A DNA stretch of 13,179 nt from positions 1 through 13,179 of the forward strand of contig CAYXWT010000016.1 in NCBI GenBank assembly GCA_964468895.1. The letters are read 5' to 3'. Positions 1 to 12,952 of the stretch are shown piece by piece (within the stretch, counting starts at the first letter, position 1; each line of letters begins with the position of its first letter). The notes below the pieces were generated by a model. That model was not told the DNA's origin. It saw only the letters and a list, made by a program, of their open reading frames with translations, and did not search any database. Both the position numbers and the translations under genes were made by a program. The stretch is from an uncultured archaeon. Its GTDB lineage: Archaea > Iainarchaeota > Iainarchaeia > Iainarchaeales > CSSED10-239.

Positions 1-1843
1 TTTTACTAACTGTGTTTTGTATTTGTCCTGGACTACTATTGTATTTATCTATAATTTGATCTTCAGAAGTCTCTTTAATCCAATCGTTAATTAATCTACT
101 TAATTGTATTTTGTTTAAAAGATTTAAATCTTCATAATCAAAATTTATTTTGTCTTTAATATTGTCAAAAATATTAAATAATTCATCTTCATTATACTTT
201 TTGTAATTAATATAAGGATATAGTTCAGTTGTATTACAAATAGTAAATATTCTTTCTAAATCTTTTATCTTATTAACATCTATTTTGCTTTTAATATTTA
301 AATCTGTTATAATATTATTAGCAGAAATAGGATCTAAATATAATAGACATACTTTTTCTCCAAGCTTACTTATTTTTAATTTAGTTGTGTTTTTTATATT
401 TTCTATAAAATTATATTCTATAAATTCTGTAATAATTTCTGTGATATTTTTTTGAATTTCTAAATTATTTCCAAAAGTAAAATAATAAAAAGTTCTAGAA
501 ATGTATTCTAATATTTCATCTATAGTTTCTAAATTATTTATTAAAATTATAGCTAACAAATGTGATCTAAGTAATTTAATTTTAGATAGTTGTGATTCTA
601 TATTTGTAGGTTTTGCTATAATGTATGAATTATAAATTAATGGAATATTTTGTTCTTTGGTTACATTTGCTATTGCTTGACCAGCAGTATCATATTTTGG
701 TCTTCCTGCTCTTCCAGCCATTTGATGAAATTCATTAATAGGTATTGGATTCATACTTCCATTACTAAATCTATAAATGGAATTAATTACAACCCTATAT
801 GCAGGTAAATTAATACCAGCTGCAAGAGTTGGAGTTGCAAAAATTACTTTGATATTACCTTTTCTAAATTCTTCTTCAACTATGTTTCTTTGTTTTGAAA
901 TTAATCCAGCATGATGAAATGCAATTGAATTTTTTATACAATTATATAATAACATACATTGTTTTGTTGGTTGTTCAAGACAACTAGATGCTTCTTTTGC
1001 AATTTTTATAAGTTCTTCTGAATTACTAAAATCTTTAGTAATTGCTGAATATTTTGAAGAAAAAGACATTGTATTTTTTCTGGAATTACAGAAAATAATT
1101 ATTTGTTTATTATTTTTTAAAGTATTATATATTATATTACTTAGCCCATTATCTTTTATTTTATTAGTAATATTATTTTCTTCTAACTCTTGAATGTTGT
1201 TTTCTAAGTATAATTTTTTATTATTTAATATACATACTTCTAAAGGTACTGGTCTATAATCACTTGTAATTAATTTTGCATCAAGCCAATTACTAAGTTC
1301 ATCTGAATTTCCAATAGTAGCTGAAAGTCCTAAAAAACAAATATTTGTATATAAGTTTCTAATTTGTGTAATTAGTATTTCTAAAGTTGATCCTCTATCA
1401 GATCCTAGTTCGTGTATTTCATCAATAGTGATTAGTCCAATTTCATTTATCCATCTGGGATTATGCCTAATTATAGAGTCAAACTTTTCATAAGTTAGAA
1501 ATAAAATATTATAATCTTTTAAATTTTTTGATGATGCATCCAAATCACCAGTAGAAATACCAATTTTCAAATCATATTTTTTTGCAAACTTTTTTTTAGT
1601 TTCTTTATAATGTTCACTAGTAAGTGCTTTAAGTGGAGATATATATATAACTTTTTTTTTTTTATTTAAAACATAATCTAATAAGTACATTTCAAATATT
1701 GTTGTTTTTCCTGAAGCTGTTGGAGAACAAACAATTATATTTTCACTTAAAGTTAAATACTTTGAAGCTAGTTCTTGTGGAGGGTTTAATGATTTATAAT
1801 TATTAATTTCAAGTACTTCTTTTAGAATTTCTTTTTTATTCAT
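1..1843 (-). CDS. hel308: Ski2-like / Hel308-family superfamily-2 DNA helicase, N-terminal ~614 codons; the C-terminus runs off the left edge. Not in the supplied ORF track.
   Basis: Own minus-strand translation from ATG at 1843..1841: MNKKEILKEVLEINNYKSLNPPQELASKYL... Motif I SPTASGKTT (1700..1726), motif II DEIH (1412..1423), LGLSATIGN, SDYRPVPL, AFHHAGL, ATPTLAAGINLPA, motif VI QMAGRAGRP (698..724). The C-terminal part reads ...NDWIKETSEDQIIDKYNSSPGQIQN. No in-frame stop in my hand translation down to position 2. Confidence 0.9.
   Translation of the reverse strand, partial: MNKKEILKEVLEINNYKSLNPPQELASKYLTLSENIIVCSPTASGKTTIFEMYLLDYVLNKKKKVIYISPLKALTSEHYKETKKKFAKKYDLKIGISTGDLDASSKNLKDYNILFLTYEKFDSIIRHNPRWINEIGLITIDEIHELGSDRGSTLEILITQIRNLYTNICFLGLSATIGNSDELSNWLDAKLITSDYRPVPLEVCILNNKKLYLENNIQELEENNITNKIKDNGLSNIIYNTLKNNKQIIIFCNSRKNTMSFSSKYSAITKDFSNSEELIKIAKEASSCLEQPTKQCMLLYNCIKNSIAFHHAGLISKQRNIVEEEFRKGNIKVIFATPTLAAGINLPAYRVVINSIYRFSNGSMNPIPINEFHQMAGRAGRPKYDTAGQAIANVTKEQNIPLIYNSYIIAKPTNIESQLSKIKLLRSHLLAIILINNLETIDEILEYISRTFYYFTFGNNLEIQKNITEIITEFIEYNFIENIKNTTKLKISKLGEKVCLLYLDPISANNIITDLNIKSKIDVNKIKDLERIFTICNTTELYPYINYKKYNEDELFNIFDNIKDKINFDYEDLNLLNKIQLSRLINDWIKETSEDQIIDKYNSSPGQIQNTVSK
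1652..1663. repeat. 12-nt homopolymer (T12 on +, A12 on the coding strand) inside the helicase gene, encoding N-K-K-K-K
   Basis: Counted directly: c + 9 t (1651-1660) followed by 3 t (1661-1663). In frame it reads AAT AAA AAA AAA AAA GTT. Confidence 0.9.
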
Positions 1844-2004
1844 TAATATAATTATATAACAAATATATTTAATACCTTAATTATTATTTTTGAAATCAAA
1901 TTATATAGATATAATTAAATATACGTTTAATTTAATATTAATATGACTTTATATATTTAATTATCTATAAATTGTATATAATATTTTAGTTATTATAAAT
2001 TTAA
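1844..2004. promoter_or_regulatory. Divergent intergenic region between the helicase (-) and the CARDB-like gene (+); presumed to hold both archaeal TATA/BRE promoters
   Basis: 161 nt with no ORF, almost pure A/T with many TATA-like strings. Neither flanking start codon has a Shine-Dalgarno motif, consistent with first-in-unit genes with short or no leaders. Individual boxes cannot be picked reliably in this composition. Confidence 0.3.
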
Positions 2005-2547
2005 ATGAAGGTGATTTTTATAAAAACCAAATTTACTTTAATGATGTTTGTTTTAGTATTTTCATGTTTATTTGCAAATAGTATTTTTGCAGATGATGTA
2101 GGTATTATAGATATTATTACATATGATACTATAGAAATGTATAGCAATTTTGATGTAAATGTAGTTGTAGTTAACAATTCAGGTGCTAATAAAGATGTTA
2201 ATTTAAATGTAGACATATTATCTCCAACAGGTTTTGGTGTTGGTAATGCGAAAAAAGATGAAATCATTTTTGCAAATTCTACTCAATTAGTTACAGTTCC
2301 ATTTATTTGGGATGCTAATATAGATACTAATGCATCTATTAATAGTCATATTATTAATGTTGAGCTTGGTAATGATTATATTGAAGGGTCTATTAAGAAT
2401 AATTTTTTAAGAAAGTATTTTATAATTATAGGAAAGGAAAAAAAGATTCCTGTGCCAGATTTTCCTCTAATTCTTTCTATATTATTAGTATTTACAATAG
2501 TTTTAATATATTCAAAACCAGAAAATAAACCTAAAATCAAAAAATAA
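2005..2547 (+). CDS. Secreted or surface-anchored CARDB-like domain protein with a C-terminal P-x-F + TM + basic tail
   Basis: Signal peptide MKVIFIKTKFTLMMFVLVFSCLFANSIFA/DD. CARDB-like pattern by eye: FDVNVVVVNNSGANKDVNLNV ... STQLVTVPFIWDA ... HIINVELGNDYIEGSIKNN. C-terminus PVPDFPLILSILLVFTIVLIYSKPENKPKIKK. Confidence 0.7.
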   Translation: MKVIFIKTKFTLMMFVLVFSCLFANSIFADDVGIIDIITYDTIEMYSNFDVNVVVVNNSGANKDVNLNVDILSPTGFGVGNAKKDEIIFANSTQLVTVPFIWDANIDTNASINSHIINVELGNDYIEGSIKNNFLRKYFIIIGKEKKIPVPDFPLILSILLVFTIVLIYSKPENKPKIKK

Positions 2548-2583
2548 AATTTAATAAAAAAATATAAAAAAATGGTGTCATAT

Positions 2584-3504
2584 ATGGATTCAAAAATAAT
2601 AAAAATTTTACAAAAATCAGGTACTATAAATAATAAAACTCATAAATTTGCAAAAAAATTTATAAAACCAGATCTTTCAATTTATGAGATTGGAACTAAA
2701 ATTGATGATTATATAATAGAACAAGGTGGCTTTCCTGCTTGGCCTGTTAATCTATCTGTTAATAATCAAGCTGCTCATAATAGTTATGGTAAAGATAATG
2801 ATTATAAATTAGATGAAAATGATGTTTTAAAAGTAGATATTGGAGTTTCTATTGATGGTTATATTACAGATGCTTCTCAAACAATTATTTTTAATAAAAA
2901 TCATGAAAAATTAAGAGAATGTACTTTTAAAGCTTTAGAATCTTCTAAAAAATATCTTGAAGAAAATTATAAAACTGCTAAAATTTCAAAAATTGGAGAA
3001 ATTATAGAAGAAAAAATAAAATCTTATGGCTATAAACCAATTTCTAATCTTACAGGTCATTATATAGATAGATATAAAACACATGATTTTCCTTCAATTC
3101 CAAATGTTTTATCTGATTTAGATTATAAATTTAGTGAGTTTGATAAAGCTTTTGCAATTGAACCTTTTGCTTCAGATGGAAATGGATTTGTAAGTGAAGG
3201 TGAAAAGATATATATTTTTGAATTTGTTGAAGATAGAGCTATTAGAAATCAAGGTGCAAGACAAATTTTAGAAGAAATTAAAAAATTTAAGGGTATGCCA
3301 TTTTCTGAGTCTTGGGTTGGAAAAGATTTAAGTGAATTTAATAGAAAAATTGCACTTAGAGAGTTACTAAGATCTGAAATAATTTCTGGATATCCAGTAT
3401 TATTAGATAAGAAAGGATGTTTTGTTTCTCAATGGGAAGATACTTTCATAATTGATTTAAAAGAAGGTTTATTAGATTTAGTGAATATAAATGAATTATT
3501 CTAG
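2584..3504 (+). CDS. map: Methionine aminopeptidase, type 2 (archaeal/eukaryotic class, peptidase family M24A)
   Basis: FPAWPVNLSVNNQAAHNS; metal-ligand contexts VDIGVSIDGYITDASQT (Asp, Asp), LTGHYI (His), FAIEPFAS (Glu), SQWEDTF (Glu). A helical insert between the last two, typical of type 2, is present (ARQILEEIKKFKGMPFSESWV...LRELLRSEIISGYPVL). Start called at ATG 2584 because GGTG (2574-2577) lies 6 nt upstream and archaeal MetAPs begin near this point. The ORF-track start ATG 2572 is the alternative. The usual E-H-T after the last ligand reads E-D-T here. Confidence 0.92.
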   Translation: MDSKIIKILQKSGTINNKTHKFAKKFIKPDLSIYEIGTKIDDYIIEQGGFPAWPVNLSVNNQAAHNSYGKDNDYKLDENDVLKVDIGVSIDGYITDASQTIIFNKNHEKLRECTFKALESSKKYLEENYKTAKISKIGEIIEEKIKSYGYKPISNLTGHYIDRYKTHDFPSIPNVLSDLDYKFSEFDKAFAIEPFASDGNGFVSEGEKIYIFEFVEDRAIRNQGARQILEEIKKFKGMPFSESWVGKDLSEFNRKIALRELLRSEIISGYPVLLDKKGCFVSQWEDTFIIDLKEGLLDLVNINELF

Positions 3505-4651
3505 ATTGTTTAGTTTAAAAAATATTTTAAAGATATTTTTAATATCTTTAAGTCTTATATTTTGGGTTTATTTTTATATTAACTCAAACATAAGTTTAGA
3601 TATACTTATAATATTTGACTTACCATCTATTATGAATACTTTTTTTACTACTAACTTTTTGATATTTTTAATATTATTTCCAATTACAACTTCATTAATA
3701 ATTTCATTTTCATATAAAGGAGAAAATAAAACTAACATTTTGATAACAGGTATTGGAATAATATTAGGATCTTTGATAAGCTTACTTCTTTTTGGATTTG
3801 ATTTTAATTTTGTAATATTTTTAGTTTTATATTTAATAATACATATTGTAATAAATACATTTACAAAAACTAAATTTGAAAGTGAAGCTAAAAGTAGTGT
3901 TTTAGATACTGCAAATTATTCTTGTTCAAAAATATCTTTATTTTTGACAATTATTTTATTTATAATATTATTTATAAGTTTACTTCCAAATCAACAACAA
4001 AAAGCAGTAAATTTAGAAGTTGGTATTGTGAATCTTTTTGTTGGAGATGATTTAAGTAATTGGTTAGGTACTTCTTATAGTATAAGTAAAAGTTGTACTA
4101 AGCAAAATCTTGAACAAATAATGGGGCAACCACAATATAAAGCTCTAGAAGAAAAAACAGATGTTGAAAGTATTAATTTTACAAATTATTTAGATTCTAC
4201 TTATGATTCTATAGATGATGAATCTTCATTTGATTTAGCAAACCTGAACACTTTAGAAGTTAAAGAAAACGTTTTGAATACCATTAGAACTATTCCTATG
4301 ATGGTTATTGTAGAAAAGTATTTTGCAATAGTTTTTTCTTTTGTAGTTGTTTCTTTTGCTTATTTATATTTTGGATTAGCTTTTGGTATATTAGGTGTGA
4401 TATTTGTGATTATATTTAGAAAGTTATTAGATTCTAAACATAATAATTCTAAAGATAATGATAATAAAGTTTTAAAAAACATGTTAGACAAAGATATTAA
4501 TACAAATCTGTTAAAGACTGATAATACTAAAGAAGAATCTACTATTGAAGAAAAAATCTCTGAAGATAAGATATCTCAAGAGAAGCAATCTGATACTAAA
4601 GATGATGATCTTCCTAAAGAAAAAGATGTAGATGACTTTAAATTTAATTAA
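3491..4651 (+). CDS. Polytopic membrane protein of unknown function (about 7-8 TM segments, ~100-aa loop, K/D/E-rich C-terminal tail)
   Basis: ATG 3491 overlaps the end of map by 14 nt (map stop TAG 3502-3504), with AGTGA 6 nt upstream. Hydrophobic segments lie near aa 12-31, 38-73, 82-123, 146-165 and 268-310. The loop (aa ~167-267) has 1 Cys and acidic patches. The tail (aa 311-386) is low-complexity K/D/E/N. Confidence 0.72.
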   Translation: MNYSRLFSLKNILKIFLISLSLIFWVYFYINSNISLDILIIFDLPSIMNTFFTTNFLIFLILFPITTSLIISFSYKGENKTNILITGIGIILGSLISLLLFGFDFNFVIFLVLYLIIHIVINTFTKTKFESEAKSSVLDTANYSCSKISLFLTIILFIILFISLLPNQQQKAVNLEVGIVNLFVGDDLSNWLGTSYSISKSCTKQNLEQIMGQPQYKALEEKTDVESINFTNYLDSTYDSIDDESSFDLANLNTLEVKENVLNTIRTIPMMVIVEKYFAIVFSFVVVSFAYLYFGLAFGILGVIFVIIFRKLLDSKHNNSKDNDNKVLKNMLDKDINTNLLKTDNTKEESTIEEKISEDKISQEKQSDTKDDDLPKEKDVDDFKFN

Positions 4652-4675
4652 ATATAAAAATATAAGGCAATTATT

Positions 4676-5986
4676 ATGATTTTAAAAAATAAAAAATTAT
4701 TATTATTATTTGGGAGTGTTATTTTCTGTTTTATATTAATTAATAATATTTTTGCAATATCTATTTTAGATACAAAAGATATTTCTAAAGATTATTTTTT
4801 TAATGATGAATATATAGATAATAATACCAAAATAGTTTCTTGTGAAAACGAAACTTATTTTGTAGTTCCTGCATTAAACTCAAATGGTTCTGTTACTTTT
4901 TTTGTACCTATTAATAATAGTAGTGGACAAATTTATTCTGAAGATGATGATGTGTTAAAATCTTTATTTAAAACAACTTATTTTTTAAAAAAAATAACTA
5001 CTTCTAATAGTAATAATTATTTATCTTTACAATTAGTTGATAAAATAAACCAATTAATATTAATATTAAATTCCAAAAATTCACAACTTCAAGGTATTAT
5101 TAATAATGATTATTCTTTAGAAATTACTAATACTTGTAAATCATCACAATCAGAGTTAAATAATTTATTAGAAAATTTAGAGACTTTAAAAGTAAATTTA
5201 GAAAATGCTTATAGAAAACAAGAAGAATTTACAAATAATTCTGATTGTTTAAAGACTGATAAATTAATACTTATTTTTAAAAATGCTTTTGAAGGTTATT
5301 CTGATATAACTGAATTTGCATTAAATTTTCAAAATTCCACAAATTTAATTACTGAAAAAGTAGTTGCAAATAATGAACTAGATCAAATTACTAAAAATAT
5401 GATTATTAATTATGCTTCTTCACCTTTAAGTTTAAGTTCAGAAATATCAACTATATATGATAGTTTATCTAAAACAAATTCTTTTTATAACCCTATTGTT
5501 AATTCTTTATTAAAAACTGGAGATAACAATCCAATTAATTTACAAGTACATAATTTTTTAGCAAGGTCTGATTTAGTGAAAGTTAATGCAATACTCTATG
5601 GTTTTGATGCTGAATTAAATGGTTCTGTAGATGAGGTTTCGAAATATGTACTCAGTAGTGAATTAAACGAGCTATGGGTTGACCAAGAATCAGTAAAACG
5701 TGTCAAGACATCTTATTTAGAGGTTACTAAATTGTATGAGGATAAAGATTATTCTTTAATAATTAATAAAGTAAATTATTTAAAATTACAATTAAAGAAA
5801 GTTATTAAAAGTGGTTCAGAAATAAAAGAAAGTGAAAATAATTTTGATTTTGAAACAAAGCATTATTTAATAACTGGAATTGCGATTGTTCTTATTCTAT
5901 TATTGATTTATCTTATAAATAAAAACAAAAAGAAAAAAAGATATACTAAAGTAGTAAATAATAATAAAAAAGATCCTTTTAATTAA
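4676..5986 (+). CDS. Surface protein: N-terminal signal peptide, long helical/coiled-coil ectodomain, C-terminal TM anchor and poly-Lys tail; function unknown
   Basis: MILKNKKLLLLFGSVIFCFILINNIFA signal. Heptad-like stretches (SELNNLLENLETLKVNLENAYRKQEEF). Sequons NNT, NET, NGS, NSS, NST. C-terminus HYLITGIAIVLILLLIYLINKNKKKKRY. Weak SD AAGG 8 nt upstream of ATG 4676. Confidence 0.72.
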   Translation: MILKNKKLLLLFGSVIFCFILINNIFAISILDTKDISKDYFFNDEYIDNNTKIVSCENETYFVVPALNSNGSVTFFVPINNSSGQIYSEDDDVLKSLFKTTYFLKKITTSNSNNYLSLQLVDKINQLILILNSKNSQLQGIINNDYSLEITNTCKSSQSELNNLLENLETLKVNLENAYRKQEEFTNNSDCLKTDKLILIFKNAFEGYSDITEFALNFQNSTNLITEKVVANNELDQITKNMIINYASSPLSLSSEISTIYDSLSKTNSFYNPIVNSLLKTGDNNPINLQVHNFLARSDLVKVNAILYGFDAELNGSVDEVSKYVLSSELNELWVDQESVKRVKTSYLEVTKLYEDKDYSLIINKVNYLKLQLKKVIKSGSEIKESENNFDFETKHYLITGIAIVLILLLIYLINKNKKKKRYTKVVNNNKKDPFN

Positions 5987-8019
5987 AGCTCATATTCATT
6001 AAGTATTTTTTCATCAATTTTATATTTATTTAATGCAAGCTTAAATTCTATATAGTCTTTAGGAGGATTTTTAGTTAATTTTTCAATAAATTTAGTTCTA
6101 GAATTAATAATTTCTAAAAGATCATTTAATTTAATGTTGTGTTCTCTAGAAATATCTTTTAATATTTCACTTTTGTATGTTATAGGTAAATCATTAGTAA
6201 ATAACCCATCATTATTTTTCTTTTTAGAATCAGATATATAATCATATACTGCATTATATTCTATTTTGTTTTCTTTAACATTAAATCCTCTAACTTCATC
6301 AATTTCTTTAATAGCTCTTTTAGTTTCTGAGCTACCACTAAAACCAGTAATAATGACTATATCCATACTTGTTAACAAAGATGGTTCTAATGATATTGGT
6401 GGAGTTATTAATCTATTTACAAGATCATTTATACTTTTAGAGTGAACTGTAGATATACAACAGTGACCTGAAGCCATACCTTGGAACATAAGTGCCATTT
6501 CTTCTCCTCTAACTTCTCCAATAACTAAATAATCTGGTCTTTGTCTAAATGATTCTTTTAACAGATCTTCCATAGTTACTTCACCGTATTTTTTACCTCT
6601 AGCATCAGGAGGCCCAAAACCAGGTCTTGAAATTTGTGGAATCCAATTATCCATTAATAAATTAATTTCTCTTGTATCTTCAATAGAAACAACTCTTTGT
6701 CCTTGTGGTATAAATGAAGTTATAACATTTAAAAGAGTTGTTTTACCAGCAGCTGTTGGACCAACAATAATTGCAGTTTTTTTAAATTCAATAGCTGTCC
6801 AAAGATAAGCTGTAATTGTTGGGTTTAAAGTATTACTATTATTAAGATCAATAGCAGTTAATGGTTTTGAAGGAAATTTTCTAATAGTAAAAGTAGGTCC
6901 TCTAGTTGAAACATTTGTTGTTAGAGTTGCATTTACACGAGATCCATCCGGTAATATAGAATCTAATAACGGAGAAGCATAAGATACATAACTTTTACAT
7001 AGATGAGCCATTTTAATTACAAATTCTTGTAATTTTTTTTCATCATTCATTACAATATTAGTGACAAGATGGCCATATTTTCTATGAACTATAAATACCG
7101 GTATACCAGTACCATCTCCTTCAATATCTTCAATAAGAGGATCATGCATTAGAGGTTCTATTTCGTCTAATCCTTTAATTTGTCTTGCTATATAATAAAT
7201 GATTTTCTTTTTTTGTTCAGAATCTAATTTTAATTTCTTTTTTGCAAATATTCTATCTACTTGTTTAAATAATGAGGCATCATCTTTAATATCTATTAAT
7301 GAAATTTTATCAATTAATTCGTTTTTAACATCTTCTAGTATTTTCTTTTCAGAAGTATTTAATTCAGGTTCAACAACAACATATTCTTTTCTTCCATTTT
7401 TAGTTTCAACAAAAGCATATGCAAAACCAGGTATTAGAGCTTGATAATTTTCTGGTTTTAGTTCATTAGGCATTTCAAATTTAGGCCCAGTATAATTAAT
7501 AATATCTTCTTCATTTGTTTTATTTATTACAGGTTTTTTGTTTTTAGAAAATAATGTTTTTATAAATTTATTTAATTTAATAAATATACTTTCTTTTTTG
7601 ATAGTTTGTTTTTTAGTTAATATTTTGGGTTGTATTAGAGGTATCTCTTTATGTATTTCTTTAATTTCTTTTATTGGTATTTCTTTTACAATTTTCTTTT
7701 TTTTAAAAATATTATTTAAAATAGATCTATTTCTTAAGGTAAATTTTGTATTATATGGTATTTCCATATTTCTACATAATTCTAATAAGCAATTATTAAA
7801 TTCAATTAATTTTTTTAAAACATCTTTGTCTTTGTTTTTGGATGTTTCTAGTATTTGCTTGTCTTTTAATTCTTTAATTAATTGAGAAGAAGATATTTTA
7901 CTTTCAATTAATTTATTAATTAATTCTTGCTCATTTGAAGATCTACTATCTTCTATTTTAGAAATAGTATGCGCTAGGTCTACTAACTTTTTTGTATCTT
8001 TTGAGTTTGGAATTTTCAT
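5983..8019 (-). CDS. FlaI/ArlI/PilB-family type II/IV secretion (type IV filament) ATPase with a ~190-aa Lys-rich N-terminal extension
   Basis: Walker A VGPTAAGKTT (6736..6762). SIEDTREINL Asp box. Walker B RPDYLVIGEVRGEE (6499..6537). His box GMASGHCCISTVHS. FlaI-type N-domain YQALIPGFAYAFVETKNGRKEYVVVEPELNTSEKK. The ORF-track start at 8031 is TTG (plus strand reads caa). I prefer ATG 8019 (MKIPNSK...), which has GAGATG 6 nt upstream. Confidence 0.93.
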   Translation of the reverse strand: MKIPNSKDTKKLVDLAHTISKIEDSRSSNEQELINKLIESKISSSQLIKELKDKQILETSKNKDKDVLKKLIEFNNCLLELCRNMEIPYNTKFTLRNRSILNNIFKKKKIVKEIPIKEIKEIHKEIPLIQPKILTKKQTIKKESIFIKLNKFIKTLFSKNKKPVINKTNEEDIINYTGPKFEMPNELKPENYQALIPGFAYAFVETKNGRKEYVVVEPELNTSEKKILEDVKNELIDKISLIDIKDDASLFKQVDRIFAKKKLKLDSEQKKKIIYYIARQIKGLDEIEPLMHDPLIEDIEGDGTGIPVFIVHRKYGHLVTNIVMNDEKKLQEFVIKMAHLCKSYVSYASPLLDSILPDGSRVNATLTTNVSTRGPTFTIRKFPSKPLTAIDLNNSNTLNPTITAYLWTAIEFKKTAIIVGPTAAGKTTLLNVITSFIPQGQRVVSIEDTREINLLMDNWIPQISRPGFGPPDARGKKYGEVTMEDLLKESFRQRPDYLVIGEVRGEEMALMFQGMASGHCCISTVHSKSINDLVNRLITPPISLEPSLLTSMDIVIITGFSGSSETKRAIKEIDEVRGFNVKENKIEYNAVYDYISDSKKKNNDGLFTNDLPITYKSEILKDISREHNIKLNDLLEIINSRTKFIEKLTKNPPKDYIEFKLALNKYKIDEKILNEYEL

Positions 8020-8060
8020 GTGACATCTCAAATCTTTATTAAATTATAAAATTAAGAAGA

Positions 8061-8429
8061 TTATTTGGTTTCTTCTTTTTTTGTTTCCTCAGAATTTATT
8101 TCTGGTAACCCTTCAGCTTCTGTTTTTTTATTATAAATTACTTTAAGTTCATTTAATTTATCACTTATAGAATTTACTATGCTTGCAATTTCATCCCAAG
8201 TTTTCTTTTTACCATTTATGTTTTCTTCTTCTTTTTTCTTATTAGCTTCTAACATGGTTGCATAAGAAAACTTAGTGATTTCATCATCATCTAATTTAAC
8301 TTTAATTTTTTTAAGTTCGTTTTCTAAATTATCTCTTTCTTCTTCAGCCATATTCAATAACTCTAATTTTGAAACAATTATGTTACAATTTTTTTCAATA
8401 TTTTTTAAAATTTCTTTATTATTTGCCAT
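8061..8429 (-). CDS. Small soluble acidic coiled-coil protein (122 aa), unknown function, translationally coupled upstream of the ATPase
   Basis: No hydrophobic segment; E/K-rich helices (MAEEERDNLENELKKIKVKL; DKLNELKVIYNKKTEAE). GAGGT (8437..8441) lies 7 nt upstream of ATG 8429 and overlaps the stop codon of the preceding gene. Confidence 0.7.
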   Translation of the reverse strand: MANNKEILKNIEKNCNIIVSKLELLNMAEEERDNLENELKKIKVKLDDDEITKFSYATMLEANKKKEEENINGKKKTWDEIASIVNSISDKLNELKVIYNKKTEAEGLPEINSEETKKEETK

Positions 8430-8434
8430 AAAAA

Positions 8435-8923
8435 TTACCTCATATTTTTATTAATTATTTGATTATTATAATTATAAGTTTCTATATAATATATATCTTT
8501 GTTAATATATGTACAATTACATAAATATATAGGCATTTTGTTTATAAAGTTATCTATTTTTATTGTTGAATTATTACTTATAGTTCTGTTAAAATCATTA
8601 TCTATGAATAAATTACAATCTTTATCCAAATAATTACTTATAATCATACTATTATCTTTATTTTGGACTATATTACACATTTTTGTATTATAGTTATGTG
8701 ATTTAATAAAATTTACAAAACTATTATTAAAATTATCCATATTTTGAATATTTAAATTTGGATTTTCATTTAAAATTAAGAATTCTGTAATATAATTTTC
8801 ATTTAAATTTTGAGCAAGTTTAGAATTATCAGGAATTGTTCTTATATTAATTATTAATAAACTTATTAATGATATTATAATTAAGGTTGTTATAATAAAC
8901 ATAAATGCTTTTTTAGATTTCAA
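8435..8923 (-). CDS. Small membrane-anchored or pilin-like protein (162 aa) with a class III-like N-terminus; TTG start
   Basis: Start codon is TTG (plus caa 8921-8923), with GGTGG 7-9 nt upstream inside the end of the preceding gene. The first ATG (8902) would remove the basic n-region. N-terminus (M)KSKKA/FMFIITTLIIISLISLLIINIR, then an N-rich ~130-aa domain with 4 Cys. Confidence 0.62.
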   Translation of the reverse strand: MKSKKAFMFIITTLIIISLISLLIINIRTIPDNSKLAQNLNENYITEFLILNENPNLNIQNMDNFNNSFVNFIKSHNYNTKMCNIVQNKDNSMIISNYLDKDCNLFIDNDFNRTISNNSTIKIDNFINKMPIYLCNCTYINKDIYYIETYNYNNQIINKNMR

Positions 8924-8926
8924 TAT

Positions 8927-9286
8927 TTATTCCACCCAAAATATTATACTTAATGTTTTATTACTATCTGCAAAGTAATAGTCTATTGCCTTTTTATTAA
9001 TTGTATTTAATTCTTGTTTAATAATACAATTATCATCTATATAATCACAAATCTTAATAGTAAATGAGCTATTAATTAATGTATAAAGATTATTATAAAT
9101 TATTGTTGTGTTTCCATCTTCAATTAATTCTCTGAACTCAGTGTCTTGAGATTTTAATTTTAGTAAATCTTTAACAGTATTATTAATTTCTAAAGATTTA
9201 TCTGGTTTTTCATAAATATCCACAACTATAAATAAAAATGAAAATAAAATTATTATTGCAATTACTAATTCTAATGATTTGGTCAT
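8927..9286 (-). CDS. Small membrane-anchored or pilin-like protein (119 aa) with a class III-like N-terminus
   Basis: MTKS/LELVIAIIILFSFLFIVV, then a ~90-aa domain with a Cys pair (KICDYIDDNCII). Weak SD AAGG 6 nt upstream of ATG 9286. Only 3 nt separate its stop from the next start. Confidence 0.62.
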   Translation of the reverse strand: MTKSLELVIAIIILFSFLFIVVDIYEKPDKSLEINNTVKDLLKLKSQDTEFRELIEDGNTTIIYNNLYTLINSSFTIKICDYIDDNCIIKQELNTINKKAIDYYFADSNKTLSIIFWVE

Positions 9287-9308
9287 AATTTGCCTTTAAT
9301 ATTTATTT

Positions 9309-10217
9309 TTAATTAAACATACCCGATACTAAATTTTCAATAATTAGATAGTATTTTTCAGCATCATCTTCTTCAGCAAGCATTTCTGGAGGTATTGCAT
9401 AATATGCAACTTTATTAGAATGACTTGTAACTATTAATGGAAAAATATCACCGTAATTTTTAGAATCATTATCAATTAAATTAGATCCAAAATCAACTTT
9501 TAGTGGAGTTGGGTTTGGTTCTATTAATTTAACTATTGTATAATCATCATATATTAATAAATTTTGTTTGAGACCTCTAGTTAAAGGATTATCACTAGAG
9601 GCTACTAATTTACCTGTTCTTATATCTGATGAACAAGTTTTCAAATCACAAAAATTAGAAACATATTTAACTCCTAAATAAGTATCAAATCTAATCCAAT
9701 TATTTTGATCATCAACTCTTTGCCATCCAGTATATTTTTTAGTAATTGGATTTTCAAAATATTTATCTTCAGGTGCTTTTTCTAAACCACTATCTCCAAT
9801 CCAAATTAATCTGCCACCTTGTGTAACATAATTCATAAGTGTAATTATAGTGTTTGTAGATATTTGTCTTGCATGATCTACTATTACTAAACTAACACCA
9901 CTTAATTGGTCAGAACTAAAATAATTAATATTTCCAAGATTGGCGTGATATCCTGCAATTTCTTTATTTGCTAGTAATTCTCTTAATCTTTCAGGGTTAC
10001 CCATGCCTGTTCCTTCAGCAGGATTAGATAATATTAATATACTAGGTTGTTGTTTTCCACTTATTATTGTTTGTACACCCCAATATACTTTACACCATCC
10101 TTGTATTTTACCACATCTAATACTCCCAGACCAAGTAAACATAAATAGTGCTGCTATTAGAATTACTGCTAGTAAAATAATTCTTCCAATCCAAACTTTA
10201 TTATTTTTTTCAGGCAT
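9309..10217 (-). CDS. N-terminally membrane-anchored protein with an extracytoplasmic alpha/beta domain (possibly DUF4350/ThuA/class-I glutamine-amidotransferase-like fold); first gene of the operon
   Basis: Anchor KVWIGRIILLAVILIAALFMFTW. Cys pairs CGKIQGWC and CDLKTC. Flavodoxin-like strand-helix pattern PSILILSNPAEGTG...PERLRELL...GVSLVIVDHARQISTNTIITLMNYVTQGGRLIWIGDSG, resembling the conserved GGxLxxxGD segment of that fold family. The fold assignment is by eye only. Confidence 0.75.
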   Translation of the reverse strand: MPEKNNKVWIGRIILLAVILIAALFMFTWSGSIRCGKIQGWCKVYWGVQTIISGKQQPSILILSNPAEGTGMGNPERLRELLANKEIAGYHANLGNINYFSSDQLSGVSLVIVDHARQISTNTIITLMNYVTQGGRLIWIGDSGLEKAPEDKYFENPITKKYTGWQRVDDQNNWIRFDTYLGVKYVSNFCDLKTCSSDIRTGKLVASSDNPLTRGLKQNLLIYDDYTIVKLIEPNPTPLKVDFGSNLIDNDSKNYGDIFPLIVTSHSNKVAYYAIPPEMLAEEDDAEKYYLIIENLVSGMFN

Positions 10218-10358
10218 ATTTTATTCATTTTTAATTTAATTTCTTTAGAATCTATTTATATCTAATATAAAAATATTTTATATTCTTTTTGGTTTTATAA
10301 ATATATACATTATAATATTATTTATAGTTATTTATATTTAAAAAAGAGGTTATTATTT
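10218..10358. promoter_or_regulatory. Divergent promoter region between the filament operon (-) and secG (+)
   Basis: 141 nt without ORFs. TATA-like TTTATATTTA at 10331-10340 (+) and TTTTTATATT/ATATAAATAG on the minus strand 40-55 nt upstream of ATG 10217. GAGGT at 10346-10350 is the SD for secG. The operon's first gene has no SD. Confidence 0.35.
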
Positions 10359-10529
10359 ATGAAAATGAAAAAATCTAAAAATTCTGGTAATGGACCAAGT
10401 TCTGCTTTAGGAATTATGAAATTTAAAGAAACAGTAGATTCTCCACAAATGTCTCCAGAAACTGTTGTTATATTTGTAGTAGTAGTTATTATTATTGTAA
10501 TTATTGTTAAATCAGCTTTTGGTTTATAA
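10359..10529 (+). CDS. secG: Preprotein translocase subunit Sec61-beta (archaeal SecG), 56 aa; not in the supplied ORF track
   Basis: Own translation: MKMKKSKNSGNGPSSALGIMKFKETVDSPQMSPETVVIFVVVVIIIVIIVKSAFGL*. It matches the archaeal Sec61-beta layout: basic N-terminus, S-(A)-G-L-x-(R/K)-F, then x-x-x-P-E/K-x-V, followed by a single C-terminal tail-anchor TM. GAGGT lies 8 nt upstream of ATG; TAA stop at 10527-10529. Confidence 0.75.
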   Translation: MKMKKSKNSGNGPSSALGIMKFKETVDSPQMSPETVVIFVVVVIIIVIIVKSAFGL

Positions 10530-10546: not shown

Positions 10547-12952
10547 TTAGTATGGTTTAATTATAATTTTTACTATTTCTTTTTCTAAATTACAATTTAT
10601 AAAATTAGAATATCTTTCAATTATTTCTTTTGAACCTTCTCTATTTGTACCATATTCTAAATTAGTTCCTTTATTTATAATATTTAGATAATAGCTATTT
10701 TCTAAACTAAAATTATCTAAATCATCTTGAAATATATTTTTAGAAAAATATTTTGTAAATTTAATATTTTGATAATCAAATAAATTATCTAAATTATTAA
10801 TTTCATTTTTTATTCTTAAAGTAACATTACTTTCACAATTGTTTATTAATAAATGATCAGAACTATATGTGAAAACACATGAATTTAAATCATTTGTATT
10901 TCTTTCAAAAACATTTATACTTATAATAGAATTATAATCAAAGTTTTCTTCTAAATCTATTATTTGTAATTTTTCATTTTTATTATTAATATTTAATTCA
11001 TCACCAGAAATAGAAATTTGAAAATCATTTAAATCAAAACTTTCATTATTAGTAATATCAATTTTATAAATTCCATTATTTAAATTAGTAACAACAATAC
11101 TTGGTTCGTTAGCAGTATATTTTCTAACAAACACATGATCTACAACAAGTGTATCTGGATTGCCGTAACCATCAGTAGAAAAATAAACTGGCAAAGTATC
11201 TGGATAAATATAATCAGAATCATCAAGTGTGTATTCTAAAATACCACTTTTATAATATGTAATTAAATCAGCAGATATTTTTTTAATTTCATAAACATTA
11301 TAATCTCTAGGATCATGAGTTACTTCAGAAGTATAATCTGAATTTTCATCATTTGCCCAAGACACAGATGATGTTTGATCATCAGCTCTACCGTACCAAC
11401 TAGTTCCATTAGTTAAAACATCTCCATGTGGGAATGGTTTAAATGGATCATCAGCAAAACCAATTAAAGTTGAATGTCTATTAGAAGTTATTTTAGATCT
11501 TGCATGTAGTATATTTTCTATATCCATATAATTAAAATTAGAATTAATTCCTATGAAATTATCAGCAGATGCAGAAGTATTAGAAATAGTTAATTCTCCA
11601 TTACTTGTAGTTATTGTTCCATAAGTTTCTCCATAACTATCCCATTTATCAGTATTTAATGTGTCTTCATCAAAATCATCAAAAAATTCAAATATTTTAT
11701 CTCCATTGGAATCAAAACAACTATTTTTAGAAATATAAATCGTTTTAGTAGAACTAGCTTCTAAATTTAATTTTAACCAAATATTAAAGTCATCATTATT
11801 ATCTTCTATATAATATTGAATACTATTTAAATCTAAATTAGAAAAATTAAAATCTATTTCTTCATCGCTATCAATATTTACCCAAAATTCTTTTGTATTT
11901 GGAAATAATATTAATTTATTATCTTCAAAAGAATTAGTAATGATTTTTATATTTTTATTATTATCTTCTAAACTAATATTATTTTCTAAATTAAAATCAA
12001 AACTTCCAGCAATATTATTATATTTATTATTAACAATATTTGTTGTAACTATATTATCATCAATTTCAAAATTAAAATTATTTGATTGTATTAGATTATT
12101 ATCAATATCTATTACTAAATCATTAATTTTATAAATTTTAAAATCATCAATATAAGTAAGATCATCAATAGTTTCAAATATGATTTTACCATCATTTATA
12201 TTATAATCTAAATCACCTTCAACTTTTATACCATCAATAATTGCAAAAGCTGAATTACTAGAATTAGAGCCAAAATAAACTTTTCTCCATTCTGTATTCT
12301 TATATGAATAATTAGAATCTAGTAAAGTACAACTTATACTAGTACAATTAAATAATTTTTGATTACTACCAGTGATTTCTAATTTTAAATAATTAGAATC
12401 ATCATCAACATAATTAAAATAAATATTTAAATTAAAGCAATTAATATTAATAGTACTATTAAAATCATAAAAACTATTAATAGTAGATATATTTGTATCA
12501 ACAGCAAGTTCTAAAGCTTCATAAGTAATAATAGGATTAGTACCATCTTTAACTTCAAAACTTTCTAAATAATTATTATCATTAAAACTTTCAGAAAATA
12601 TTGGTATTCCAATATTATTTATATTTTTATCTATATTGTAGAAATTTGTTTCTTCTTTTAAAACACCATAAACTAAATTATTTTCTATAAAACTAAAAGA
12701 ATCAGAAAGTCCATAATTATTATCATAAGAATCTAATATTAATAAATATGGTACAACTTCACTATTATTTGTATCAGTATTTATTATATCATAAACTTTT
12801 GTATTTGTATTTATATTATTATAAATACTATTTGCTATGAATATGTCTTCACTATTATCACTAATAGGAAGATTTTCAGGAATGTAACTTAAAACAGTAA
12901 CTATTATCATCAAAAAAACTATTGATGAAATAATCCAATCTATATATTGCAT
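10547..12952 (-). CDS. Large N/D/I-rich surface protein: N-terminal TM/signal anchor, ConA/LamG-like module, DUF2341 domain plus second ConA/LamG-like module, beta-rich C-terminal region
   Basis: MQYIDWIISSIVFLMIIVTVLSY anchor. DUF2341-like IDFNFSNLDLNSIQYYIEDNNDDFNIWLKLNLEASSTKTIYISKN (aa ~355-412, nt ~11717-11890). This is followed immediately by the hallmark FEFFDDFDEDTLNTDKWDS...NGELTIS...DTLVVDHVFVRKYTANEPSIVV (aa ~417-618, nt ~11099-11704). An earlier lectin-like module, aa ~118-275, ends ...GKIIFETIDDLTYIDDFKIYK. AGGA lies 5 nt upstream of ATG 12952. Confidence 0.85.
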   Translation of the reverse strand: MQYIDWIISSIVFLMIIVTVLSYIPENLPISDNSEDIFIANSIYNNINTNTKVYDIINTDTNNSEVVPYLLILDSYDNNYGLSDSFSFIENNLVYGVLKEETNFYNIDKNINNIGIPIFSESFNDNNYLESFEVKDGTNPIITYEALELAVDTNISTINSFYDFNSTININCFNLNIYFNYVDDDSNYLKLEITGSNQKLFNCTSISCTLLDSNYSYKNTEWRKVYFGSNSSNSAFAIIDGIKVEGDLDYNINDGKIIFETIDDLTYIDDFKIYKINDLVIDIDNNLIQSNNFNFEIDDNIVTTNIVNNKYNNIAGSFDFNLENNISLEDNNKNIKIITNSFEDNKLILFPNTKEFWVNIDSDEEIDFNFSNLDLNSIQYYIEDNNDDFNIWLKLNLEASSTKTIYISKNSCFDSNGDKIFEFFDDFDEDTLNTDKWDSYGETYGTITTSNGELTISNTSASADNFIGINSNFNYMDIENILHARSKITSNRHSTLIGFADDPFKPFPHGDVLTNGTSWYGRADDQTSSVSWANDENSDYTSEVTHDPRDYNVYEIKKISADLITYYKSGILEYTLDDSDYIYPDTLPVYFSTDGYGNPDTLVVDHVFVRKYTANEPSIVVTNLNNGIYKIDITNNESFDLNDFQISISGDELNINNKNEKLQIIDLEENFDYNSIISINVFERNTNDLNSCVFTYSSDHLLINNCESNVTLRIKNEINNLDNLFDYQNIKFTKYFSKNIFQDDLDNFSLENSYYLNIINKGTNLEYGTNREGSKEIIERYSNFINCNLEKEIVKIIIKPY

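Follow-up and report, generated by a model that had tools for sequence, protein, structure and literature searches.

The 13,179-nt stretch of DNA analysed here (the window; contig CAYXWT010000016.1 of assembly GCA_964468895.1, from an uncultured archaeon) encodes a secretion ATPase of the T2SSE family together with several small proteins of unassigned family, and the locus is probably half of an archaeal type IV pilus system whose genes are split: the half with the ATPase and the minor pilins of a Tad/Epd-type system with a platform of two single-domain proteins. The genes for this platform pair and for the major pilins have most likely been separated from this cassette in the course of the evolution of the lineage, and not been lost. 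The host is a DPANN archaeon with 21-33% guanine plus cytosine (GC), related to genomes labelled Candidatus Iainarchaeum; the window itself has a GC content of ~22% and is archaeal in its gene content (Sec61beta, a type-2 methionine aminopeptidase of the M24 family and a truncated helicase open reading frame (ORF)). Proteins without a family name are referred to by their length in amino acids (aa), for example g119 for the protein of 119 aa; all coordinates are listed in Table 1. Other loci, mostly from related genomes and metagenomes, carry L numbers.

The ATPase matches the Pfam T2SSE model (PF00437) with an E-value of 6e-31 and 107.8 bits (cutoff 24.9 bits), and its best solved relatives are GspE of Archaeoglobus (2OAP, 2.8e-88), FlaI of Sulfolobus (4II7, 7e-63) and CpaF (4.6e-35); the assignment to the FlaI/GspE type that a first-pass annotation had made from the bare DNA letters is thus borne out. 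All motifs are intact in the translation: the Walker A motif (GPTAAGKTT), the Asp box (VVSIEDTREI), the Walker B motif (LVIGEVRGEE; DYLVIGEVRGEE) and the His box (ISTVHS). The NCBIfam FlaI equivalog (NF058587) scores the protein with 312.7 bits, well under its curated cutoff of 550, and Pfam and NCBIfam find no ArlH (KaiC-like), ArlJ, ArlF/G or archaellin in the window or within +-10 kb of the orthologous loci. Judged by these matches, the protein is an assembly ATPase of the FlaI/GspE type and not the archaellum ATPase ArlI; the JGI annotation of its orthologues is FlaI. At its N-terminus, it has a Lys-rich extension of ~200 aa that is shared by the orthologues (646-747 aa) and, in proteins of up to 906 aa, also by the outgroups, and that is absent from canonical FlaI/GspE; this extension may bind the coiled-coil protein g122 that is encoded next to it. 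The start codon is ambiguous (ATG at 8019 or an in-frame TTG at 8031, which shortens the spacer to the preceding gene from 41 to 29 nt), and a 99% identical database protein (P0001) has 681 aa. Among the window proteins, no T2SSF, A24, KaiC/ArlH or archaellin is matched by Pfam or NCBIfam: T2SSE is the only family of such a system to be found, and the first-pass annotation was right that platform, prepilin peptidase, ArlH and archaellin are missing from the unit and its surroundings.

From this absence, the first-pass annotation had suggested that the genes could form a minimal attachment or filament module; that such a module is self-contained and works without a platform is not supported by a comparison with the nearest outgroups, in which the ATPase has 49% identity to that of the window. 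In L014, three pilin-like genes and a giant adhesin are followed by genes for proteins of 128, 172 and 115 aa (the counterparts of g119, g162 and g122), the ATPase, an HD-domain protein and two T2SSF proteins, the first of 290 aa; in this outgroup system, the closest to the window, the HD-domain gene (YfbR-like; L014:12154-12690) thus separates the first T2SSF gene from the ATPase gene. In L010, the order is pilins, proteins of 672, 130, 166, 235 and 111 aa, the ATPase and two T2SSF proteins of 289 and 288 aa; L011 is similar, with a T2SSF gene directly downstream of the ATPase gene. From these three outgroups, two single-domain platform genes right after the ATPase gene can be taken as the ancestral state, an arrangement also known from Tad and Epd systems. 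Around more than 30 in-lineage loci, no T2SSF was found in any reading frame within +-8-10 kb, so there is no pseudogene remnant either. A search with the T2SSF-2 profile returned 47 proteins: 13 are on contigs that match outgroup ATPase contigs in size, and none is on a contig that matches any of the 59 in-lineage ATPase contigs, which argues that the adjacency of ATPase and platform was lost specifically in the lineage of the window. Such uncoupling is not unique to this lineage, because a Nanoarchaeota-type contig (L012:8314-12037) has a T2SSE ATPase of 539 aa between RtcB and archease with no adjacent T2SSF; the start of this ATPase gene overlaps a Cys-rich ORF of 79 aa and two canonical pilins are encoded 2 kb upstream.

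One of the T2SSF-2 matches points to the place of the missing half. The protein (P0174) has an AT-rich amino-acid composition and is encoded on L097, a complete contig of 10,096 bp (GC 0.262) of assembly GCA_043801705.1. On this contig, genes for Cdc48, an M50 peptidase, TatD, a methyltransferase and a DRG GTPase are followed by T2SSF-1, T2SSF-2 and at least four pilins, with no ATPase gene. T2SSF-1 and T2SSF-2 are 43% and 42% identical to their counterparts in L014, respectively, and the pilins are canonical (KKA/VSPLIATVLL, the slash marking the cleavage site here and below); three of the pilins in the region L097:6275-10096 have 156 aa and two of these are near-identical tandem duplicates. 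GenBank numbers the proteins of one metagenome-assembled genome (MAG) consecutively. The platform and pilin proteins of L097 (MFH0905808, MFH0905810 and MFH0905811) and the in-lineage ATPase P0036 (MFH0905901), which is encoded on a different contig of 10,140 bp, are very likely from one genome, as the accession numbers of P0036 and the L097 proteins are only 91 apart. P0036 aligns with the window ATPase over 100% of its length at 61% identity; its identities are 58-63% to all in-lineage ATPases and 44-52% to those of the outgroups. P0174 shares 60-62% identity with three further T2SSF-2 clusters, which mirrors the divergence among the in-lineage ATPases. We infer that the window's own genome carries such a second locus for platform and pilins too.

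Among the small proteins, g162 has the features of a prepilin. Its N-terminus in the window reads as a class III (prepilin) signal, MKSKKA/FMFIITTLIIISLISLLI (MKSKKA/FMFIITT...), with a hydrophobic helix of ~20 aa that begins at +1. All 23 distinct in-lineage orthologues have the motif: a short and usually basic leader, G at -1 and then [FY][TM][FY]I, with the window copy having A at position -1 where the other orthologues have G. As the motif is kept in all of these orthologues, the presence of a prepilin peptidase is implied. Homologues of g162 are found in L010 (1.4e-10) and L014, and the protein is predicted to be a minor pilin.

The start of g119 is of a different kind: M-[TI]-[KR]-S-x-E, with Glu6 invariant, is directly followed by the hydrophobic helix. 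In all 23 distinct orthologues there is an in-frame stop codon 1-10 codons upstream of the start and hence no room for a leader; a class III signal with cleavable leader is not present. The homologue in L011 begins with ...RRRG/FLHVFEVVFAI and its +1 residue aligns with Met1 of g119 (MTKSLELV). L014, L010 and L011 each have a g119 homologue at the corresponding place (hmmsearch 2e-9 and 1e-3). The protein resembles a pilin that is already mature, not a prepilin, and is likewise a predicted minor pilin. The first-pass annotation had described both small proteins as having short basic N-termini in front of one hydrophobic helix; their pilin-like character holds for both. In the profile searches suggested there as a check, neither protein matched any known family of Pfam or NCBIfam, and neither matched a PDB entry.

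A start without leader is also found in g801, the large surface protein encoded beyond Sec61beta: in 14 of 14 distinct orthologues, the protein begins with M[DE][YHF][IV]D[WF] and continues with a hydrophobic helix (MQYIDWIISS... in the window). The N-terminal 400 aa of g801 are conserved across all in-lineage loci and are orthologous to the start of a giant FG-GAP/LamG adhesin of 2211 aa in L014 (L014:2085-9103), whose gene directly precedes the g119 homologue; the g801 orthologue of L001 has 961 aa and LamG/FG-GAP domains. g801 is a predicted pilus-associated adhesin. In both leaderless proteins, g119 and g801 (the latter with 2211 aa in L014), Met1 takes the place that +1 has in a pilin after processing, and position 5 or 6 is a conserved acidic residue. 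Tentatively, the pilus system of these archaea could be canonical and yet have leaderless subunits of pilin type as its primer, a class not described before, to which a giant adhesin with a pilin-like N-terminus would belong. In the papers that were consulted, neither this cassette nor a leaderless pilin-like subunit of archaea is described.

The gene for g122 is always directly upstream of the ATPase gene, in the lineage as well as in L014. g122 is a soluble coiled-coil protein, as the first-pass annotation had stated, with 17 invariant residues including a K-F-x-Y motif and a ratio of non-synonymous to synonymous substitutions (dN/dS) of 0.02-0.15; nothing significant was found in Pfam, NCBIfam or the PDB. 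A coiled-coil protein also adjoins the ATPase in L010 (upstream) and L011 (downstream), with no significant similarity to g122. We predict g122 to be a cytoplasmic partner of the ATPase.

Several points weigh against a split pilus system as it is proposed here. Apart from the N-terminal motif, no statistically supported profile similarity links g119 or g162 to canonical pilins (hhalign probability 1-3%; 3% for g162 against the canonical DPANN pilins, in the N-terminal helix only). The link between L097 and the lineage of the window is made by accession proximity (91), GC and orthology, and no contig joins both loci. A prepilin peptidase was not located in any of the loci covered. Finally, no T2SSF was found on three in-lineage contigs of megabase scale (977,747, 839,632 and 671,531 bp), in a search that was limited by a 5-mer word prefilter and returned only 47 proteins. 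The absence of T2SSF-2 matches from the 59 in-lineage ATPase contigs, these three (0.67-0.98 Mb) included, and from the surroundings of more than 30 orthologous loci would be expected if the locus were a truly platform-less filament or attachment module, in which the ATPase and its four partners act without T2SSF or prepilin peptidase; that two of the three pilin-like proteins (g119 and g801) need no leader cleavage would fit as well. We consider such a module improbable: an orthologous T2SSF pair and at least four major pilins are encoded on a separate contig of an almost certainly in-lineage MAG, g162 retains its canonical cleavage motif in every orthologue and the sister systems, with the same module, use two T2SSF genes. 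We also know of no T2SSE assembly ATPase that works without a platform. A variant, in which the window organism and most of its lineage have no canonical T2SSF and the ATPase, g122 and the peptidase-independent g119 and g801 use an unrecognised membrane partner, appears equally improbable, and less likely than a canonical system primed by leaderless subunits.

The arrangement of the window genes is conserved. The order recurs in L001, L003-L007, L013 and ~28 metagenome loci of low GC (0.22-0.33), so that the check on related genomes that the first-pass annotation had asked for gives more than 30 low-GC loci; the ~28 metagenome loci come from a scan seeded with 10 sequences of the g302 family, and a scan of genome contigs with the ATPase yielded only three relevant loci. 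L013, whose GC is 21%, bears the label Candidatus Iainarchaeum sp. The context common to these loci consists of a g801 homologue, Sec61beta on the opposite strand, the genes for the proteins of 302, 119, 162 and 122 aa, the ATPase gene, the convergent genes for the 436-aa protein, the 386-aa protein, M24 and the 180-aa protein, and L11/NusG/SecE/FtsZ; within this context, the ATPase orthologues are 55-80% identical over their full length. Nei-Gojobori dN/dS is 0.02-0.29 for every gene in several pairs. The unit is real and functional under purifying selection and its order is not due to chance. These data make it very unlikely that the locus is a degenerate archaellum or pilus operon on its way to loss during genome reduction: although the locus has neither platform nor major pilins and one relative (L042) has lost the entire cassette, all genes and the ATPase motifs are intact, purifying selection is seen across several pairs, the order persists over ATPase identities of 55-80%, the archaellum FlaI score is below its cutoff with no Arl genes present, and neither relaxed selection nor frequent frameshifts were seen in the relatives.

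L042 (ERZ795051 NODE-2538, 2715-7685; GC 0.26, in-lineage) is a natural relative without the cassette: it keeps Sec61beta, g302, the 436/386/M24/180 genes and L11-NusG-FtsZ, and has no g801, g119, g162, g122 or ATPase. It also bears on the convergent gene for the 386-aa polytopic membrane protein, which, alone or together with the 436-aa surface protein, might replace the canonical platform. This gene is kept directly downstream of the ATPase gene in every in-lineage locus, a word-indexed search found its family almost only in the lineage of the window, and seven helices with a soluble insert of ~110 aa are predicted for the protein. However, hhalign against T2SSF gives a probability of 0.7%, there is no sequence match in Pfam or the PDB, and an AlphaFold model (predicted local distance difference test (pLDDT) 71.5) has no structural match (best Foldseek E-value 0.34, template modelling (TM) score < 0.2). 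The gene is in an operon with the methionine aminopeptidase on the strand opposite to the ATPase, it persists in L042, and L086, from a lineage that has no pilus genes, encodes a distant homologue close to g302. By the hhalign result, the lack of a fold match, the persistence in L042 and the distant homologue elsewhere, the 386-aa protein was rejected as a divergent platform, and there is very little chance that it serves as one.

The first-pass annotation had counted five genes as one unit, beginning with g302, and in this respect it has to be revised. A divergent Sec61beta/g302 pair is found in ~40 loci of other archaeal lineages (GC 0.30-0.58; 28-37% identity), and no pilin-like or ATPase gene follows g302 in any of these. 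Because g302 is linked to Sec61beta elsewhere and because the backbone of L042 is intact without the cassette, the functional pilus cassette is the 119-162-122-ATPase run together with g801, without g302. g302 was rejected as a pilus component, as it is paired with Sec61beta in lineages that have no pilus genes: it is a backbone gene with the cassette behind it. Sec61beta is likewise part of the genomic backbone and not of the pilus system. The pair is at 9309-10529 in the window, in L015/L016 and in L046-L096, and a g302 paralogue is sometimes found one or two genes downstream (L015, L047, L050 and L055).

g302 is an anchored alpha/beta ectodomain protein, as had been read from its sequence in the first pass. 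An exact look-up of the protein found nothing and its family, which has 130 clusters at 50% identity, has no Pfam model; the weak Pfam matches are to ABC_transp_aux (0.0038), DUF4350, GIFT and ThuA, all below thresholds. An AlphaFold2 model based on 45 homologues (pLDDT 93.6; predicted TM score 0.91) has 105 PDB matches at E <= 1e-3, with GH42 middle domains, the ThuA-like 4PXY/4JQS and PurQ on top; GH42 trimerisation domains and 4PXY are matched by Foldseek at E-values of about 1e-7 to 1e-8, with a TM score of 0.63 for 4PXY, normalised on the target. This placement among class I glutamine-amidotransferase-like folds agrees with the weak Pfam matches. As regards a catalytic Cys-His-Glu triad, the conserved strand-turn is GDxG with Asp142 invariant and no Cys at this site. 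The ectodomain thus has the same fold as ThuA-like, GH42 trimerisation-domain, GldG, DUF4350 and GIFT proteins; unlike those, g302 is anchored by an N-terminal helix, has two conserved Cys pairs and has Sec61beta as its genomic partner. As its gene stays linked to that of a translocon subunit, g302 may act in secretion or in the biogenesis of the envelope.

For the split pilus system, the following mode of action is proposed. g801, g119 and g162 would together make up a tip or priming complex, in which the DUF2341/LamG-type domain of g801 is the adhesin. The hexameric ATPase, together with g122, would dock on a TadB/TadC-like platform pair and, on this platform, polymerise the major pilins. 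Platform pair and major pilins would be encoded at a second locus (T2SSF-T2SSF-pilin x4) and an A24 prepilin peptidase, which would process g162 and the major pilins, elsewhere again. The pilus would serve attachment, in keeping with the DPANN lifestyle. In this picture, we infer the physical interactions, the role in a tip complex and the adhesion function, and observe the homology, the synteny, the signal motifs, the purifying selection and the separate platform and pilin locus of a lineage member.

Archaeal type IV pili (T4P) with two tadC-like genes are found in clade 1 (the Epd pili of Methanococcus maripaludis) and in many clade 2 euryarchaeal systems, and stand-alone pilin loci as well as large adhesins have been described for archaeal T4P (Makarova, Koonin and Albers 2016, PMC4858521). 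In the same study, ATPase and tadC are regarded as cognate neighbours that make up one module, and there is a report of a cytoplasmic coiled-coil protein (arCOG07564) in loci of subclade 4F, whose ATPase type is also present in nanoarchaea (PMC4858521). The system described here has in common with the T4P of clades 1 and 2 the VirB11/T2SSE ATPase, two single-domain T2SSF proteins (in the outgroups and in L097), minor pilins, large surface or adhesin proteins and major pilins that may be encoded apart from the ATPase. Unlike these systems, ATPase and platform genes are unlinked in the lineage of the window and two pilin-like components are leaderless; moreover, the 119-, 162- and 122-aa families match no Pfam or NCBIfam model. 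With the bacterial Tad/Flp pilus (TadA/CpaF, TadB, TadC, Flp, TadE/F), the system shares a platform made of a pair of ~290-aa proteins with one T2SSF domain each, small pilins and minor pilins; among the top PDB matches, CpaF (4.6e-35) comes after the archaeal ATPases. It differs from the Tad/Flp pilus by the absence of TadZ, secretin and TadV, by the ~200-aa N-terminal extension of the ATPase and by its archaeal-type class III pilin signals. Fold and family of the ATPase are the same as those of the archaellum ArlI/FlaI; the FlaI equivalog score (312.7 versus 550) and the lack of ArlH, ArlJ, ArlF/G, ArlX/CDE and archaellin genes nearby set it apart. Modular type IV pilins with lectin or adhesin domains exist in bacteria, such as PilB and PilC of Streptococcus sanguinis, as do the tip minor pilins TcpB and CofB. 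Like these, g801 has a pilin-type N-terminal helix fused to a large module (DUF2341 in the window, LamG/FG-GAP in L001 and L014). Unlike these, it has no leader and its N-terminus is at the equivalent of the mature +1 position; its incorporation into a filament is a prediction.

The close packing of the five minus-strand genes between 10217 and 5983 was confirmed from ORFs and sequence, and so were the details given for it in the first pass (Table 1): the spacers along the g302-g119-g162-g122-ATPase run are 22, 3, 5 and 41 nt, Shine-Dalgarno (SD) motifs precede g162 (GGTGG, within the 3' end of g119) and g122 (GAGGT), none was found before the start of g302, and the stop of the ATPase gene is overlapped by 4 nt by the convergent plus-strand gene at 4676-5986. 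Sec61beta is also preceded by GAGGT, indicating that SD sites are used in this genome. Equally tight packing is seen in the neighbouring M24/386-aa/436-aa genes and the close spacing is not peculiar to the ATPase unit. Sec61beta is divergent from g302, with an intergenic region of 141 nt, and convergent with g801; g801 forms a transcription unit separate from the g302-ATPase run, and the remaining cassette genes are probably co-transcribed with the upstream g302. A scan of the window for sigma-70 promoters and terminators gave the same counts as shuffled sequences, the sigma-70 model not being applicable to archaea, and searches for tRNAs and Rfam families had no matches.

Table 1. Features of the 13,179-nt window with position, strand and supporting information
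Feature	Position	Strand	Information
Truncated helicase ORF	2-1876	-	
180-aa protein	2005-2547	+	Signal peptide, C-terminal membrane anchor
Type-2 methionine aminopeptidase (M24)	2572-3504	+	Pfam
386-aa polytopic membrane protein	3491-4651	+	Predicted helices
436-aa protein (secreted, helical, C-terminally anchored)	4676-5986	+	Convergent with ATPase gene
T2SSE ATPase, 678 aa from ATG	5983-8019	-	Pfam T2SSE, PDB matches
g122, 122-aa soluble coiled-coil protein	8061-8429	-	ATG start; GAGGT 7 nt upstream
g162, 162-aa prepilin-like protein	8435-8923	-	TTG start; GGTGG 8 nt upstream
g119, 119-aa leaderless pilin-like protein	8927-9286	-	Homologues in L014, L010, L011
g302, 302-aa membrane-anchored ectoprotein	9309-10217	-	AlphaFold2/Foldseek; ThuA/class-I-glutamine-amidotransferase-like
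Sec61beta	10359-10529	+	NCBIfam PRK01253 at 6.9e-10
g801, 801-aa surface protein	10547-12952	-	Pfam DUF2341 at 3.4e-9

The plus-strand genes next to the cassette have features of their own. The M24 gene overlaps the start of the gene for the 386-aa protein by 14 nt, and the trio of M24, 386-aa and 436-aa genes is conserved throughout the lineage. The window copy of the 386-aa protein carries an extra tail of ~60 aa that is rich in Lys, Asp and Glu. The 180-aa protein, which has a weak match to Transglut_C/Ig-like domains (0.013), is encoded upstream of M24 in all relatives, and for the 436-aa family, searches of Pfam, NCBIfam and the PDB gave nothing significant.

The surface machineries of DPANN archaea, which are believed to rely on attaching themselves physically to hosts, are so far poorly annotated. 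The genes described here define a conserved DPANN pilus cassette of adhesin, leaderless pilin-like protein, prepilin-like protein, coiled-coil protein and ATPase, in which the partner families have no Pfam or NCBIfam model. The widespread Sec61beta-linked ThuA-like ectoprotein is set apart as unrelated to it and may merit a study of its own, and the leaderless pilin-like subunits are an oddity that can be tested. These data leave in force the rule that a T2SSE ATPase requires a T2SSF platform. The cassette can be split from the genes for platform and major pilins, and TXSScan-style rules or calls of a "FlaI without FlaJ" would misjudge genomes of this kind.

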